A stretch of 27,280 nucleotides of DNA from a virus (IMGVR_UViG_3300044988_000111:1-27280); one strand, 5' to 3'; shown: positions 2,260 through 27,013, numbered from the stretch's first letter. Program-made: numbers and translations. The notes: generated from the letters alone by a model not told the origin.

Positions 2260-3951
2260 TCAGAGAGCTATACTCATAGCAATAGCAAAACCTGCTCCTG
2301 CTTTGTTGTCTATTTGAGTTTGAATAGCTGAAGTTACACCATTCAAATAACCAAATTCTGTATTATCTACTGTACCTGTTCCAATTTTAGTAGCAGCTAT
2401 TGAATTAACTGCAATGTTAATTGTTCCAGATGCTGTTACCGGTGAGTTAGTTACTGTAAATTCTGAAGATCCTGCATCAGCTAAACCTACGGAAGTTACT
2501 GTTCCGCCTGAGCTTGGAAATACTTGTGTATATGAAATTGAACTAGAACCAAGTGTAGCACTTGTGTCTGTAGTGCATAAAAATAAATCGTCAGCATGAG
2601 TAGAACCCTCTGATACTAAAATTAATTGTCCAGCTAATTCTGATATTGTGTCATATTCTGTATCTCTTGAAGCAGCACCTGAAGCTACAACAGTATATAA
2701 ACCATTTTGAGATGCAGTAGATTGATCTTTTAATAAAACTCTATTTCCTGTTACTAATGTAATACCATCTAATGTATCACCGTTTTCTAATCCAGAAGAT
2801 ATAGCTACGTTAGTAGTAGAAGCAACTCTTGCAACAGCTCTTGTTCTAAGTCCAGCAACTAAATTATCAACATAGTTTTTAGTAGCGGCTTCAGATGTAG
2901 ATGAAGGATCACCTAATCCTGTAATTGTTCCACCAGTTACAGCAACGTTATTTGCATTTTGAGTTGCAATAGTTCCTAATCCTAAATTAGTTCTTGCAGT
3001 AGATGTAGAAGATACATCTGATAAATTATTTGAATTTGTTAGTTTAGTTCCTAATTGAGTTTGAACTGCAGAAGTTACTCCACTTAAATATCCTAGTTCT
3101 GTGTCAGTAGTTGCAGATACTGCAATCTTTGAAGATGAGTTAGATATAACTGCTCTTGAAGCTGTTAAAGATTCTGTATCAATTGTAGTTGCTGATCCAG
3201 TAATCGTTGCTTGCTTTGCATCTAATTGAGTTTGAATAGCACTTGTTACTCCAGATACATAACCTAATTCTGTAGATGTAACTGTAGTTACAGCAACCTT
3301 ACCAGAAGCATTTGAAGCTAAAGCTCTGCTTGCTGTTAAATCTGCTGATGTAATTGTAGTAGCGCCACCTGTAATTGTAGCTTCTTTAGTATTTAATTGT
3401 GTTTGTATTGCAGAAGTAACTCCGTCAAGATAACTGAATTCTGTATTTGAAACTGCACCGCCACCGATTTTAGCTGCGTCAATTGCTGCTGATGCAGAAA
3501 TCTTAGCATTAGTAATTACTAGTTCTGGTATTGAATCATTTGTTTTAGATAAAGCACCAAGATAAATTGTAATAGTTTCATTAGATAATGAACCACTATC
3601 CCAAGTTACTGTTACAGTTGTGTTAGTTGAAAATGTAGTTGCACTAATTGTTCCGTAAATAGTTCCTGTAGAAGAACCGATTGCTTTAACTCTACGACCA
3701 ACATGATAAAAGCTTGTAACGTCTGCACTTGATACTGTGAATGAAGTTGATGAAGCATAAGTAATTGTAAATGTACTATCTCCGTCTCCATAAATAACCC
3801 ATTGAGAATCATTATACCATTCTCTAATATCAGCTGTTAGACCTCTAAATGCGTTATTGATATTTGAAGGTAACATTCCTTCAGCAATACTAATTCCACC
3901 TATTGATGTATTACTACCTGCTGTTGAACTATAATCTTTTATTCCTGCCAT
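2260..3951 (-). CDS. Tail fibre protein
   Basis: 563 aa Ser/Thr-rich; repeated GVTSAIQTQL motifs; 'AATKNYVD' and 'RVLLKDQS..QNGLY' fibre modules; GGAG RBS. Confidence 0.8.
   Translation of the reverse strand: MAGIKDYSSTAGSNTSIGGISIAEGMLPSNINNAFRGLTADIREWYNDSQWVIYGDGDSTFTITYASSTSFTVSSADVTSFYHVGRRVKAIGSSTGTIYGTISATTFSTNTTVTVTWDSGSLSNETITIYLGALSKTNDSIPELVITNAKISASAAIDAAKIGGGAVSNTEFSYLDGVTSAIQTQLNTKEATITGGATTITSADLTASRALASNASGKVAVTTVTSTELGYVSGVTSAIQTQLDAKQATITGSATTIDTESLTASRAVISNSSSKIAVSATTDTELGYLSGVTSAVQTQLGTKLTNSNNLSDVSSTSTARTNLGLGTIATQNANNVAVTGGTITGLGDPSSTSEAATKNYVDNLVAGLRTRAVARVASTTNVAISSGLENGDTLDGITLVTGNRVLLKDQSTASQNGLYTVVASGAASRDTEYDTISELAGQLILVSEGSTHADDLFLCTTDTSATLGSSSISYTQVFPSSGGTVTSVGLADAGSSEFTVTNSPVTASGTINIAVNSIAATKIGTGTVDNTEFGYLNGVTSAIQTQIDNKAGAGFAIAMSIAL
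2311..3444 (-). repeat. Four TE(F/L)xY(L/V)xGVTSA(I/V)QTQ(L/I) repeats in the tail fibre
   Basis: Copies at about 3394-3444, 3223-3273, 3052-3102 (171-nt period) and 2311-2361. Confidence 0.85.
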
Positions 3952-12069: not shown

Positions 12070-13338
12070 TTAAATAATATAATTCGTATTTACTTCTATC
12101 TTTTTTTTCCAATTTGTCATCTCAATTCCGTAACCCACAACACCTGTTCTTAAAGCATCTGCGGCATGGCTTGCAAAATTGTGTATGGGTCTATTCCTAA
12201 AACATTGGTTTATGTCATCCCATTTTTTCTGGTAAGATTTTAAACATTCCATACCATAATGGCATTTGTTTTTGTCAAACCAACAGTTAGGCAAAACCTT
12301 TCTTACTGCTTCAATACCATCTTCTAAAGATAGTTTCGGCGCAACCTCAAATGCTATACCTAATTCTAAGGCAGTTTCCAACCTTGATTTTCCATAAGCC
12401 CCTAGTTCTCTAACCTTGATATCATGTGGAGCAATATGTCTTGAATACTTATAACCCTTGCTTTCAATAATATTAGCGTAGTGGTCTAATCCTTCGCCGG
12501 CGTTTTCGTAAAAATCTATTAATCTTATTTCACCTTTGTGTCTCTGTGCAAACCAAATCACAGTAGAATCATTCATTCCTAAATCCCACCATGTTTCAAC
12601 CGGCAGCGCTTTGTCGTATAAATTTTCTATAACTCTATTTGTCTTTTCTAAGTTTTCAATAATAGCTCCATAGTAAGAACCTGTTATTGCAGCTTGAAAA
12701 GAACATTCAAATTCTTGTTCAAACAAATCCTCAGACATAATAGATTTGGCAGCTTTTAATTCATCATCATCTAGTATCTTTGTTTCAGATGCTCTGTGTA
12801 TTGATGAATACCAACCTTCTGTCTTTTGAGCGTATTGGTATAATTCAAAAAAATAATTTTTGCCTTTTGGCGTTCCAATAAATACACACCAACCTTTCCT
12901 ATCTGCCAAAGCTGGTCTTATGATTTCAGGAAATAAATTTGGTGCAATGCTTTGCGTTTCATCTAAAACACAACCATCTAAAAATATACCTCTTAATGCC
13001 TGGTCATTCTCAGCGCCAAGAATTGTAATCCTTGCGCCATTTGGAAAGTCAGCTCTTAATTCTGATTCGTTAAACTTAACACTTGGTATCTTGCCAGCAA
13101 AAGTTTTGATGTAATCCCAAGCTGTTGCTTTACCTTGTTTGAAAGTAGGAGAGATAAATGCGTACCTAGAATTTGGCTTCTTGGTGTACATCGCATCTCT
13201 AATCATGTGATTAATACACATCACAGTCTTACCTGCTCTTCGGTGCAAGACCAATACGGAGAATCGGTGCTTAGAGATATTATCATGCAATTTTTTTTGC
13301 AGTTCTCTTGGCTTGTATGGAATCTCAAATATTGGCAT
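12070..13338 (-). CDS. terL: Terminase large subunit
   Basis: Walker A 'HRRAGKT', Walker B 'CVLDE', 'IGTPKG' coupling motif, nuclease 'WDLG' and 'SHAADALR'. Confidence 0.95.
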   Translation of the reverse strand: MPIFEIPYKPRELQKKLHDNISKHRFSVLVLHRRAGKTVMCINHMIRDAMYTKKPNSRYAFISPTFKQGKATAWDYIKTFAGKIPSVKFNESELRADFPNGARITILGAENDQALRGIFLDGCVLDETQSIAPNLFPEIIRPALADRKGWCVFIGTPKGKNYFFELYQYAQKTEGWYSSIHRASETKILDDDELKAAKSIMSEDLFEQEFECSFQAAITGSYYGAIIENLEKTNRVIENLYDKALPVETWWDLGMNDSTVIWFAQRHKGEIRLIDFYENAGEGLDHYANIIESKGYKYSRHIAPHDIKVRELGAYGKSRLETALELGIAFEVAPKLSLEDGIEAVRKVLPNCWFDKNKCHYGMECLKSYQKKWDDINQCFRNRPIHNFASHAADALRTGVVGYGIEMTNWKKKIEVNTNYII

Positions 13339-23077: not shown

Positions 23078-23323
23078 CTACCAATTTTTGCAAGACCAAT
23101 ATCTAGCTGTGAATTTATCTTTAGCTGTATCGCAGTTGTGTCTAGCTCTAAAAGATTTTCTTCTTGATGATATAAATTTTTTAATCTTCATCTCAGGATC
23201 ACCATATCTAACTAACTTAACTTGGTTACCCTTCTTAGCAAGAACAGCAAACTTCTTTCTCTCTCCTGGAGTTCTTTTCTGTTTATTATATCCGGAGAAT
23301 TTCTCTCCTCTATAAACAACCAT
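23078..23323 (-). CDS. Conserved basic protein (81 aa)
   Basis: 'KLVRYGDP...RRKSFRARHNC...ARYWSC..W' widespread phage family. Confidence 0.8.
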   Translation of the reverse strand: MVVYRGEKFSGYNKQKRTPGERKKFAVLAKKGNQVKLVRYGDPEMKIKKFISSRRKSFRARHNCDTAKDKFTARYWSCKNW

Positions 23324-23559
23324 TATCTTGCTAATGGATTAGATGAGCTTGCTCTAAGTTCTTTCATTTGAACTTTTAGTAATTCAATTTCTTTTTGTGC
23401 AATAGCTAAGTCTTGTTTAATCTGACCAGCTTTAGCAGGATCAATGCTGTCAATCTTTGACATGATCTCTCCATACTTGATGAAGCCACCACCAATAGTA
23501 CCAATGATTGCAACTGTTGCTATAATTTCTTTTAAATTATTCTTAACTTTATCTATCAT
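23323..23559 (-). CDS. Membrane-anchored coiled-coil protein (78 aa)
   Basis: TM 'IIATVAIIGTIGGGFI', heptads, C-terminal 'NPL'. Confidence 0.75.
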   Translation of the reverse strand: MIDKVKNNLKEIIATVAIIGTIGGGFIKYGEIMSKIDSIDPAKAGQIKQDLAIAQKEIELLKVQMKELRASSSNPLAR

Positions 23560-23560
23560 A

Positions 23561-24829
23561 TTAACCTTTTGTTTTTCTAAGTTTTTCTAATTGGATAATA
23601 ATATCATCCTCTTCTTCTTGTATTTGTTTTAACATATTTTGTCTAGCTACCAATGGGTCTTTGTTTATATAATTGTTTAGATTAACATTAACATATATGG
23701 CTTTTTGTTCCAGTTGTAATTGATTAAAGAAATCAGGATTAGGAACACCTACCATTTGCTTTGATATATAAAATGGTTTATTCTCATACACACTTAAACT
23801 AGGTTGATTACTTTTTAATGCGTCAATTTTTATTTCTTGTACTGACTTCACTTTTGTATCTACACCTTTTAATTCTTTTTCTACTTTATCTAATTGTTGT
23901 TTCGCTTTGGCATCTACCTGCGTACTGCCTACACTTTGTTTCTCTTCAGTTGAAGAAACTTTAGTAGTATCTTTGCCTGTGGGTAACTCTTCTTTTGAAG
24001 ATTTTTGTTCTTTGATTGACTCTTCTTTGTTCTCTGTTTGTTCTTTATTAACTTCTTTAGGTTGTTCTGTGGATTGTTTTGTTTGTTCTGGCGCTGGTTG
24101 TGCCAACTGAATTGTTTCATTAATCTTTGTTGGTTCAGAAGATTGCTGAACTACAACAGGAGATTCTATAACCGGAGATTCAATAATTGCTGCAACAATA
24201 GGTTCTGTAATTGTAACTTGCTGAATAACTGGACTTAAAATTTCAATGGGAGTTATTGTAATAGGTGGCAAAGGATTTGTTACATACGTAACAGTCAAAG
24301 AAGGATTAATTAAATCAGCAGCATAGTGATATGGAGAATTTGTAGATTCATAAAAAGAAAATCTACTTGTAATACTGTAATTGTTTTGTAAGTTTTTATC
24401 TATAACAGCTATGTTTAAATAATTATTAAAATAAGAATTAGTAAAGTTAACTGTTCTATTTTGTGTGGTAGATACACCGTTATCATTAGTAATAACTTGT
24501 GTCATGGTTACATTTTGATTTGGATTGCCAGACCAAAACCAAATATCTGCACCCTGAGTAGATGTAAAACCCTCATTGATTTGTGCTTTAGATAATCCAA
24601 CAGTAGATAATGAAATTGTATTCTCAATATATTGACCACTAACTCCTGCTATTGTTCCGCTACCATGAGTAGAATAAAGATTAGTTCCACTCCAACCATT
24701 AGCAGTTGTGAATGTACTTGGAGTTAAATTAGAAGTTGTTGTTGTTTGAGAAAATGAAACTACAGAAGTAATAAACCAAATAATAAAAGTGTAAAAAATG
24801 ACCATGAGTTTTCTTTCGCTTCGTACCAA
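23561..24829 (-). CDS. Exported protein: beta domain, Pro/Glu-rich linker, coiled coil
   Basis: Hydrophobic signal-like N-terminus ending 'SFS-QTTT'; start may be ATG at 24805 rather than TTG at 24829. Confidence 0.75.
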   Translation of the reverse strand: MVRSERKLMVIFYTFIIWFITSVVSFSQTTTTSNLTPSTFTTANGWSGTNLYSTHGSGTIAGVSGQYIENTISLSTVGLSKAQINEGFTSTQGADIWFWSGNPNQNVTMTQVITNDNGVSTTQNRTVNFTNSYFNNYLNIAVIDKNLQNNYSITSRFSFYESTNSPYHYAADLINPSLTVTYVTNPLPPITITPIEILSPVIQQVTITEPIVAAIIESPVIESPVVVQQSSEPTKINETIQLAQPAPEQTKQSTEQPKEVNKEQTENKEESIKEQKSSKEELPTGKDTTKVSSTEEKQSVGSTQVDAKAKQQLDKVEKELKGVDTKVKSVQEIKIDALKSNQPSLSVYENKPFYISKQMVGVPNPDFFNQLQLEQKAIYVNVNLNNYINKDPLVARQNMLKQIQEEEDDIIIQLEKLRKTKG

Positions 24830-24845
24830 GCGTCTATATCTTCAA

Positions 24846-25457
24846 CTACTTTTTTTCAGTTAAAGACTCCTGCTTTTTTGTTTCTTCAATTACTTTTAGT
24901 TTTTCAATATATAAATTATAATCTGGTCTTAGCTTGTCATACTTCAACCATTGAGCAGTTGCGTCAGCTCCAATCTTACCTTCAAATGGACATGGTGTTC
25001 CTGAATTTTCCATTGCATGAAATACTCTTGCGTCTTGGCAAAGGATAGAAACAGAAGCCACTTTCATTCCAAGATCATTTAGAACTTTAGCTAGTTTAAT
25101 TCTTTCACAGTTTTCATCTTTAGTATAACTGCCACCAGATATACCTACTCCGAATGTTGACACTCCACCACTATATCCGACAACGCATAAGTCTTGTGAG
25201 AAGGCAGACATTGCTGGTGCAGATGCTGTTGCTGCAACTCTTGTGTCTCCTGAATAGGCGTTTGTAGTAGAATTAGTTGTTGTAGTAGAATTAGATGCAG
25301 AACCTGATTCGTATGTTGAAGAACTGGAAGAAGTATATCCGCCAGTAATAGAAGTATTACTACCAGAAGTATTATTCTGTGTAGTTGTTTGAGATGATGC
25401 ACTAGTGATTAAGCATAGTATTAAAACTATAGTTGTTAGTATAATGTTCTTTCTCAT
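24846..25457 (-). CDS. Exported Cys-containing conserved protein (203 aa), candidate -1 frameshift gene
   Basis: Signal peptide MRKNIILTTIVLILCLITSASS; 'SQDLC...DENCERIKLAK...LCQD.RVF.AM..GTPCP' family motif. Confidence 0.85.
   Translation of the reverse strand: MRKNIILTTIVLILCLITSASSQTTTQNNTSGSNTSITGGYTSSSSSTYESGSASNSTTTTNSTTNAYSGDTRVAATASAPAMSAFSQDLCVVGYSGGVSTFGVGISGGSYTKDENCERIKLAKVLNDLGMKVASVSILCQDARVFHAMENSGTPCPFEGKIGADATAQWLKYDKLRPDYNLYIEKLKVIEETKKQESLTEKK
24849..24871 (-). promoter_or_regulatory. Candidate -1 ribosomal frameshift signal
   Basis: AGGAG-TCTTTAACTGA-A_AAA_AAG-TAG in frame. Confidence 0.6.
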
Positions 25458-25458
25458 C

Positions 25459-25584
25459 TTATTTTTTATAACCTTTTTTCTTAATTACTTTTTTAAATCT
25501 TATAACTCTTTTGTATCTTAGGGGTTCATGTTTGAACGTAATGTATTCTTTTAAAAAGTTATTTATCTTCTTAAATATATTCAT
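25459..25584 (-). CDS. Highly cationic peptide (41 aa)
   Basis: MNIFKKINNFLKEYITFKHEPLRYKRVIRFKKVIKKKGYKK; TAATG overlap with holin, fills the gap. Confidence 0.7.
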   Translation of the reverse strand: MNIFKKINNFLKEYITFKHEPLRYKRVIRFKKVIKKKGYKK

Positions 25585-26000
25585 TATTCTTTATTAGATT
25601 GTTTGTTGGCTAAACTTCTAGCAATACTTTCACCAGATCTTCCAACTACATATCCGCCTAACCCTATTTGTAACAATGTCCAAACATCTCCTGGTAATTC
25701 AAAACCAACAACAATGCCTGTAATCATTTTAATAATAGGTGCAAAGATATAATTGAATACTAAAACAAATATTAAAACGTACATTAATAATGGTCTCCAT
25801 GATGCAGAAAACCAACCTGATTTAGCTTCAGCTTCTACGATAGATGCTGCTGCTTTTAATTCTTCAGTAGATGATTTTAATAATTGTTCGTTTAACTGTG
25901 CTTTTAATTTTGCTTGTAAGTCTTTATCTTCAACAGACTTTTCTATTGTACTGAATAATATTTTTGCAAGTGGCGCAATAGCATTTAATGCTGGTAACAT
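25584..26000 (-). CDS. Holin (GTA-type '3TM holin' family)
   Basis: 'EAKS.W....WRP' followed by TM segments and 'GLGGYV.GRS.E'; next to lysozyme; GAGG RBS. Confidence 0.85.
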   Translation of the reverse strand: MLPALNAIAPLAKILFSTIEKSVEDKDLQAKLKAQLNEQLLKSSTEELKAAASIVEAEAKSGWFSASWRPLLMYVLIFVLVFNYIFAPIIKMITGIVVGFELPGDVWTLLQIGLGGYVVGRSGESIARSLANKQSNKE

Positions 26001-26034: not shown

Positions 26035-26466
26035 TTATGCGCAAGTTCGCATAAGATCAGATAACTCTTGGCAACGTTTAGGAGTCTGAACTCTCCATTG
26101 AGAGTCTAACATCTGATTTGCAGCTTCATTATAGTCTTTTTTTCGTAACGCTTCAAACATTTTTTTAAATTTAGAAACCCCACCAATACCTAATTGGAAT
26201 ACCATTTCTACTATAATTTCTCTTGCAGTATCACAAATATCAATGCCTTCTAATAATTGTTCTGCATTATAAGCTGATCTATTAAAGTCTTTATCAAATA
26301 AAACTTCTAATAAAGATTTATCGTATTGAATACCCTCTTCAAAATCATCATCTTCAGTTAACAAATGTCCATAACCGATAGTGGCTTTGCCTAATGAATC
26401 TAAATAAACAGTATTTCTAAACCCCTCATGTTTTTTAATTCTATCTTTAACCGCTTTATAATCCAT
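26035..26466 (-). CDS. Endolysin, GH24 (T4-type) lysozyme
   Basis: 'HEG.....YLDS.G..TIGYGH' catalytic E-x8-D-x5-T motif; start most likely ATG at 26466 (frame open to 26571). Confidence 0.92.
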   Translation of the reverse strand: MDYKAVKDRIKKHEGFRNTVYLDSLGKATIGYGHLLTEDDDFEEGIQYDKSLLEVLFDKDFNRSAYNAEQLLEGIDICDTAREIIVEMVFQLGIGGVSKFKKMFEALRKKDYNEAANQMLDSQWRVQTPKRCQELSDLMRTCA

Positions 26467-26527
26467 AATACATTTACAATTATTTAATAAGACACAACCT
26501 ATATCATTGTATAGGTAATTAATGCAC

Positions 26528-27013
26528 TTACTTGATACTATCCATCTTTTCTTTGTTGTTGAAAACATCAACTAAATCTTTAAATGACTTGTAACATTTT
26601 TGTTCTTTTCTGTTTTTCTTATATTTGTTTTGTTCAACTGTAAGTTTATTTTCTTTAGATAATTCTTGGTTATGTTTTAAATCTGTTAGTATTTGTTTTG
26701 TGTCAATAATCATTAGTTCAACACCAAGTTGTTTTTGTTTTTCATTTGGAGATCTGTGAATATTATGATTGTTTTTTTTACGATATGATTTTGTTTTAAC
26801 ATCTATTAATCTTACTATACCATTTGGTTTGATTGCAACCAAGTCAAAGATACATTGTGGATCAATTGACTTTGCAACCATATATCCTTGTTTGACAAGA
26901 GAACAAATCGCTTCATATTCTGATATAGCACCTATAGCACTTTTACTTAATTGGCTAACAGTCTTACTATTAGATCTGCTACCGCCCCTATACTTAGTGT
27001 TAAGACTAACCAT
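26528..27013 (-). CDS. PD-(D/E)XK endonuclease, Holliday-junction-resolvase-like
   Basis: 'GAISEY....L...GY.V....FDLVA.....RLIDVKT'; start uncertain. Confidence 0.75.
   Translation of the reverse strand: MVSLNTKYRGGSRSNSKTVSQLSKSAIGAISEYEAICSLVKQGYMVAKSIDPQCIFDLVAIKPNGIVRLIDVKTKSYRKKNNHNIHRSPNEKQKQLGVELMIIDTKQILTDLKHNQELSKENKLTVEQNKYKKNRKEQKCYKSFKDLVDVFNNKEKMDSIK

Follow-up and report, generated by a model that had tools for sequence, protein, structure and literature searches.

A putative -1 frameshift at the end of a lake phage gene, predicted to yield soluble and membrane-anchored forms of a likely exported protein

Genes and features of the locus

The window of this study, i.e., the whole stretch of DNA that was analysed (27,280 nucleotides), is a phage contig of 27 kb that carries genes for terminase, portal, capsid, lysozyme and a 3-TM holin. 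The best match of its capsid protein is with the Pelagibacter phage HTVC106P (57%) and the stretch is found mainly in lake metagenomes; we infer that the host is a freshwater SAR11. The order on the minus strand is holin, gene A, gene B and gene C (Table 1), with a basic open reading frame (ORF) of 41 aa at 25459-25584, between the holin and gene A. A scan for promoters and terminators gave results at chance level, and a search for tRNA genes found none.

Table 1. Genes and sequence features around the end of gene A (window coordinates).
Feature	Position	Strand	Remarks
Phage lysozyme (endolysin)	26035..26571	-	
3-TM holin	25584..26000	-	Upstream of gene A
Gene A, 203-aa 0-frame product	24846..25457	-	Predicted signal peptide, Ser/Thr/Asn-rich linker, Cys-containing core, charged helix; PHROG 20531 (unknown function)
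Predicted cleavable signal peptide, gene A residues 1-22	25392..25457	-	By eye: basic start, hydrophobic core, small residues ahead of Q23
Conserved core of gene A	24885..25262	-	Invariant Cys at four positions; a beta-hairpin lies between the first two and helices follow; from alignment and AlphaFold2 (mean pLDDT 71.7)
Second A_AAA_AAG	24873..24879	-	No SD; -1 frame closed in the window
Internal Shine-Dalgarno (SD)-like AGGAG	24867..24871	-	11 nt 5' of the shift site
-1-frame TGA	24856..24858	-	Directly 5' of the heptamer; confines a productive shift to the terminal A run
Slippery heptamer A_AAA_AAG, in frame	24849..24855	-	A7 run including the preceding A; invariant across 17 unique variants of the window lineage
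0-frame stop TAG	24846..24848	-	Abuts the heptamer; TAA in some relatives
-1 extension, 29 codons + stop	24760..24849	-	Stop TAG at 24762-24760; without ATG/GTG/TTG
14-residue hydrophobic C-terminal tail	24763..24804	-	Predicted membrane anchor
5-bp hairpin, 16 nt downstream of the site	24817..24832	-	-6 kcal/mol; probably not a stimulator
Gene B	23561..24829	-	Candidate starts TTG 24829 and ATG 24805; overlaps the tail, in the third frame, with its predicted signal peptide; further a long Pro/Glu/Lys linker and a helical end
Gene C, 78 aa, third gene of the module	23323..23559	-	Hydrophobic segment and coiled coil; HTVC033P and HTVC023P give weak matches at this place (E 0.04 and 0.2)

Sequence searches with gene A against Pfam, NCBIfam and the PDB gave no match above the cut-off, and matches in the ESM Atlas were limited to hypothetical viral clusters. 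A model of the full-length protein was unusable (pLDDT 43). The core model had no match in the PDB (best Foldseek E 1.1, best VIA-align Z 4.0), which does not imply a new fold, and nine matches in BFVD (E up to 0.001), all without a functional name; its structural neighbours are uncharacterised phage proteins. The signal-peptide cysteine is missing from the close homologues P0004 and P0007, which makes it unlikely that gene A encodes a lipoprotein, and Cys15 lies, as judged by eye, outside any lipobox. Related proteins number 4,671, viral stretches with the family are estimated at about 1,800, and the closest cultured phages carrying a family member infect SAR11.

Gene B has two candidate starts: TTG gives a basic N-region and agrees with the ATG of one related locus (L024); the form in the Atlas begins at the later ATG. 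A carbohydrate-binding-like domain in gene B is a possibility raised by a weak Atlas lead (scores up to 0.80), and the HTVC033P gene at the same position is annotated as carbohydrate-binding. Gene A followed closely by a long B and a short C is also the arrangement in pelagiphage isolates. Gene A is close to the lysis genes in the window as well as in HTVC033P and HTVC023P, but close to the terminase in HTVC202P and Baldr.

The candidate recoding site and its conservation

A sequence-only reading of this locus had proposed that a -1 frameshift in the manner of dnaX and IS911 adds a membrane anchor to a secreted protein. The coordinates of the AGGAG, the 11-nt spacer and the in-frame A_AAA_AAG abutting TAG at the end of the 203-aa gene all check. 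Its -1 frame, which would give the peptide VVEDIDAWYEAK, runs to 24760 and ends in 14 hydrophobic residues, was reproduced, with a shifted product of 232 aa, a best 10-residue hydropathy of 2.8 and a mean over the last 15 residues of 2.09. The overlap with the start region of the next gene is likewise real, since gene B of the window starts inside the tail. Because a -1 TGA precedes the A run and the extension has no start codon, the extension can be reached in the window genome only via a shift in the terminal run. The 37 genes of the window (7,532 codons) contain four in-frame A_AAA_AAG, and only the terminal site of gene A combines one with an SD 9-14 nt upstream and a hydrophobic extension; SD-like motifs precede 15 of the 37 gene starts. 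The terminase large subunit gene also has an in-frame A_AAA_AAG without SD (window position 12107), nine codons before its stop, where the -1 frame stays open for 31 codons, beyond the stop and into the region of the portal gene.

Two parts of the earlier proposal stood only in part. The second heptamer, 24 nt upstream, indeed lacks an SD and meets a TGA in the -1 frame of the window, but that TGA is missing in 10 of the 17 unique close variants. The CGCTT/AAGCG hairpin is present, 16 nt downstream, but its role as a frameshift stimulator is unsupported and was rejected: the 59-nt downstream region folds no better than its shuffles (z 0.61; z -2.4 for the 25-nt piece around the hairpin) and the outer pair is broken in 14 of the 17 unique variants. 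The same hairpin covers TTG 24829, the candidate start of gene B.

Among 80 viral loci, 23 close relatives keep the A7 site, GAA AAA AAG TAG/TAA, and the 29-aa tail. The heptamer, the SD spacing and a hydrophobic -1 extension hold up in homologues as proposed. An A8 allele, which would have pointed to an assembly indel, was seen in none of the sequences spanning the site: A7 without indel is found in two contigs of RNA libraries and in those of four DNA runs made on other samples, with the proviso that these are assembled contigs, which hide rare or minor variants, and that the RNA-library runs contain 11-15% of the words. Across the 17 unique variants the tail frame contains neither a stop nor an indel, and its stop varies between TAG and TAA. 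Changes at 24817, 24808, 24775 and 24772 are silent in the tail and alter gene B; those at 24806, 24800, 24797 and 24791 are silent in gene B and alter the tail. With silent-in-one-frame changes in both directions and no stop or indel, both the tail frame and the gene B frame look constrained.

For the wider family 479 sequences were gathered (478 loci and the window), of which 461 could be anchored and 421 had a complete 3' end (229 unique); 225 had the full core, and 141 unique gene ends fall in one clade of a quick tree, both trees used here being quick SH-aLRT trees with many open forks. In this clade 84 of the 141 ends have a short hydrophobic -1-frame ORF, seven an in-frame tail and 50 no tail, counts that depend on clade and hydropathy thresholds chosen after the data had been viewed, with 23 of the 84 tailed loci belonging to the single lineage of the window. 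All 84 tailed ends carry an in-frame X_XXY_YYZ within the part of the -1 frame that is open, where 12.7% would be expected on the basis of the same genes; a heptamer is also present in seven of the 50 tailless ends. The tailed ends comprise 22 anchor-to-stop lengths, in the -1 frame every time. An independent small gene as the origin of the tail was rejected, since an ATG, GTG or TTG start for the -1 ORF is missing in 84 of 84. When all loci are clustered, tail and heptamer remain associated at 95% identity (23/31 versus 3/67, P 1e-12) and at 90% (6/11 versus 2/40, P 6e-4); at 85%, where single linkage merges the clade, the counts are 1/4 versus 0/29 (P 0.12). Outside the clade there are ten hydrophobic -1 ORFs that lack a heptamer; they did not enter the clade count and resemble gene B shadows or ATG-started ORFs.

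Several loci depart from this layout. The site GAA AAA AAG with its stop is kept in L328, L333, L337 and L388, where the -1 frame closes after five residues and the site would be decayed or repurposed. Distant homologues of the Cys core in Ralstonia phage RSP15 (ORF122; L125) and Roseobacter phage CRP-810 (gp53; L479) have neither tail nor shift site, and the ‘OmpA family’ label of gp53 was unsupported in searches with gene A. The genome collection yielded only three loci, in MAGs; L319 and L320, on Porticoccaceae MAG contigs, combine an A10-bearing A-B-C module with an upstream pair that is spanin-like, and are likely phage contigs binned into a bacterial MAG.

Homologues that encode the tail in frame had been named beforehand as evidence against a shift, and they do exist. 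In all seven loci of a sister lineage a homologous tail lies in frame behind an A10 run; yet both shifted frames soon meet a stop, at one and three codons, so that the arrangement appears inverted, and we count these loci as support. A 206-aa member of a related cluster (P0123) ends as a one-base deletion predicts, at the protein level and possibly through error. In six distant relatives, HTVC115P among them, the hydrophobic end is in frame and such an A run is absent. By core sequence the nearest relatives of the window are tailless, and the quick tree needs about eight changes for the tailless state; the tail appears, from these data, to have been lost repeatedly, also in those nearest relatives. 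Since most cultured relatives, namely the pelagiphages HTVC023P, HTVC202P, HTVC033P and Baldr, are tailless as well, the tail seems to be dispensable.

Routes to the two products and competing explanations

We consider it probable that at the end of gene A a fraction of the ribosomes slips -1 at the combination of SD, 11-nt spacer, A_AAA_AAG and stop, and that the gene thereby yields a soluble exported protein of 203 aa and a form of 232 aa predicted to be held in the inner membrane. The anti-SD of the elongating ribosome would pair with AGGAG and strain two Lys tRNAs, which would then re-pair on AAA AAA; the adjacent 0-frame stop likely gives the pause for which Mosig, a relative treated below, has a hairpin. 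The presumed SAR11 host would possess the anti-SD and a single tRNA-Lys, which pairs weakly with AAG. The 232-aa form has the hydrophobic C-terminal segment of a C-terminally anchored protein, although 14 uncharged residues without a basic end are short for spanning a bilayer and may make a weak anchor. With low confidence, we suggest that an anchored minority tethers the soluble form together with the B and C products, as part of an envelope module close to the lysis genes.

The same two products could be made at the window site by RNA polymerase slippage, with an extra A in the A7 run, which we regard as unlikely. As far as the consulted parts of two papers go, polymerase slippage is efficient on nine As (PMC5009743), and dnaX uses the ribosomal or the polymerase route depending on the species (PMC5009743, PMC3711429). 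Long runs of about 8-9 As or more, as befits transcriptional slippage, occur in 44 of the 84 tailed loci (A8-A10), mostly without SD, and in the seven in-frame A10 loci. The window, however, has only A7, followed by G, and its two RNA-library contigs show A7, contigs being apt to hide minor forms. Stimulation of -1 shifting is described for an SD 9-14 nt upstream (PMC5009743, in the part available), and GGAG or GAGG lies 9-13 nt upstream of 35 of 36 A7 sites and of only 4 of 44 A8-10 sites, against a background of 42 in 4,312 positions (1%). In 13 distinct contexts the spacer of the GGAG is 10-11 nt long and variable in sequence, with a distance to the stop of 17 to 48 nt; since the spacer is constant and the stop distance variable, the SD tracks the shift site and not a terminator. 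C_CCA_AAG stands at the stop of four loci, of which three lack A_AAA_AAR, and such sites without a long homopolymer favour ribosomes over polymerase.

The cultured myovirus Mosig EXVC030M has an SD, 11 nt, A_AAA_AAG, 6 nt and a 6-bp hairpin (z -3.4); the 0-frame stop, at which the annotation ends, lies 10 codons past the site, and a hydrophobic -1 tail follows. Besides Mosig, four other marine sequence types have a 3' stem-loop; with Mosig included, the z values range from -1.7 to -3.4. For the A9-A10 relatives without SD we expect that the same two products are likely made via RNA polymerase slippage, and for the sister lineage a likely inversion, with the anchored form in frame and the soluble form arising through slippage.

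It is very unlikely, in our view, that the shift is real but serves to deliver ribosomes to gene B (translational coupling), with the peptide tail incidental. In most marine classes the ATG of gene B stands 1-3 nt past the tail stop or overlaps it, and slippage in Shigella spa13 affects spa32 expression (PMC5009743, in the part available to us). The tail, however, is hydrophobic and of fixed length even in the three classes where it overlaps nothing (L169, L192 and L371), gene B of the window starts within it, a different gene follows in L030 (an unrelated gene of 80 aa at 3272-3514, inserted between the gene A tail and gene B), and in-frame tails exist. Given the proximity of that ATG, coupling may be a second effect of the proposed -1 shift, by which in the marine relatives shifted ribosomes would also be delivered to the gene B start.

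T-rich DNA reads hydrophobic in two frames, and the tail could be the untranslated shadow of an overlapping signal peptide or small membrane ORF, in which runs of Ile ATT read as Leu TTA, with the A runs as ordinary Lys-rich ends. In 19 of 22 length classes the tail does overlap a hydrophobic +1-frame ORF (the signal peptide of gene B or else a small membrane ORF), the gene ends are AT-rich and Lys-rich, and an SD before gene ends is common in phages (PMC5009743, as far as available). We nevertheless hold this highly improbable. At loci with the small ORF, all 37 tailed cases keep the overlapping frame open over 14-16 codons (partly by definition), whereas it closes within six codons in 24 of the 26 tailless cases; the remaining two, L329 and L330, have the full shadow in frame 0. 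The heptamer is present in all 84 tailed loci, only 15 of the 318 upstream Lys-Lys pairs are encoded as A|AAA|AAG, the rest of the gene end has -1 stops at 16% of its codons, and the SD tracks the heptamer rather than the stop.

As to the small ORF itself, it is mostly in the -1 frame at tailless loci and in the +1 frame at tailed loci. An unannotated membrane ORF of 33-42 aa with its own SD and an NPY(D/N)F end is present in Mosig (L118, about 2031-2150) and at many marine loci, where it overlaps the -1 tail and the gene B signal peptide, so that three frames are in use at one junction. In L329 and L330 a hydrophobic tail of 13-14 residues lies in frame 0, five codons behind the TAG, possibly owing to stop-codon readthrough or a hop, or as a vestige.

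Finally, an assembly error, a recent pseudogenisation or a DNA-level phase variation of the A run is hardly credible: the homopolymer, the in-frame homologues and the one short allele in the A10 lineage (P0123) would fit it, but A7 stands without indel in the 23 relatives and in the contigs of the four DNA runs made on other samples, both TAG and TAA occur as the stop, and the isolate Mosig, sequenced at 348x with Illumina (PMC7892664, in the part seen), has the same layout.

Relation to known recoding systems and implications

With E. coli dnaX and IS911 the site shares A_AAA_AAG and an internal SD 9-14 nt upstream (PMC5009743, in the parts available), to which Mosig adds a 3' stem-loop at 6 nt. 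A difference is that at gene A, a phage gene for a predicted exported protein, shifting would lengthen the product, by a hydrophobic tail. The site in the window further differs in having an adjacent 0-frame stop and, in place of the 3' stem-loop, a weak hairpin 16 nt away (z 0.61). From its sequence the window would nevertheless fall in with dnaX and IS911 in site, SD and conservation, both of the site and of the open -1 frame.

In layout the site agrees with the reversed dnaX (Chlorobium type) and with the transcriptional slippage of Thermus thermophilus dnaX, where a 0-frame stop directly follows the site and the long form is made by shifting, with A7-A10 runs and with ribosomal and polymerase routes interchangeable among orthologues (PMC5009743 and PMC3711429, in the parts available). 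The split in the gene A family between short runs with an SD and long runs mirrors this interchange of PRF and slippage in dnaX (PMC3711429, same proviso). The proteins are, however, unrelated, and the two putative gene A products differ in predicted membrane attachment, whereas those of dnaX differ in a replisome domain.

The phage frameshifts described in the literature available to us belong to tail chaperones, to extended capsid or tail proteins and to a handful of regulators. In the G/GT tail chaperones of lambda and the capsid or tail extensions of T7/T3, A2 and A118, a shift near the end of a phage gene gives a minority extended form, as proposed here, but these are cytoplasmic assembly chaperones or virion proteins, whereas gene A has a predicted signal peptide. 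Unlike the tail chaperones, gene A lies outside the tail-chaperone position and occurs in small phages and T4-like myoviruses. A tail-assembly-chaperone (G/GT) frameshift was rejected, as gene A follows the lysozyme and holin genes and begins with a hydrophobic export-like peptide.

Spanins (Rz/Rz1 and unimolecular) are comparable as exported or anchored proteins adjoining holin and endolysin. Gene A has no conserved lipobox Cys and no family match; moreover, the myovirus locus L320 has, as judged by eye, a separate Rz/Rz1-like pair upstream, which makes a spanin function of gene A improbable.

As proposed for gene A, a soluble and a membrane-bound product from one recoded gene are made by E. 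coli copA and, through editing, by the Ebola glycoprotein gene (PMC5009743, in the part available). In copA, however, the shifted product is a short cytoplasmic chaperone, and filoviruses are RNA viruses of eukaryotes in which the polymerase does the editing; both are analogies only, without homology.

We found no published report of a pelagiphage frameshift or of a phage frameshift adding a membrane anchor, in a search mainly of open-access papers, to which the cluster tables of PMC3711429 could still add; the available parts of the Mosig paper (PMC7892664) and of the paper on HTVC010P-type phages mention no frameshift. The mechanism would be a known one, in what appears to be a new gene class and with a new output.

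The broader proposition, that this widespread pelagiphage gene family, found in both small phages and T4-like myoviruses, keeps the soluble and anchored pair under selection and swaps the route to it, is in our judgment evenly balanced; the routes would be an SD-driven shift at A_AAA_AAG or C_CCA_AAG, slippage on A9-10, the inverted in-frame arrangement and perhaps UAG readthrough. Genes of the gene A type are all annotated without the anchored form, e.g., Mosig_00202. Their orthologous sites with differing signals make the interchange of PRF and slippage, known from dnaX, testable in one family. If true, the proposed pair would be a bacteriophage counterpart of the filovirus switch between soluble and anchored glycoprotein, and would provide a natural series on the interconversion of recoding mechanisms that can be tested in a cultured phage-host pair.
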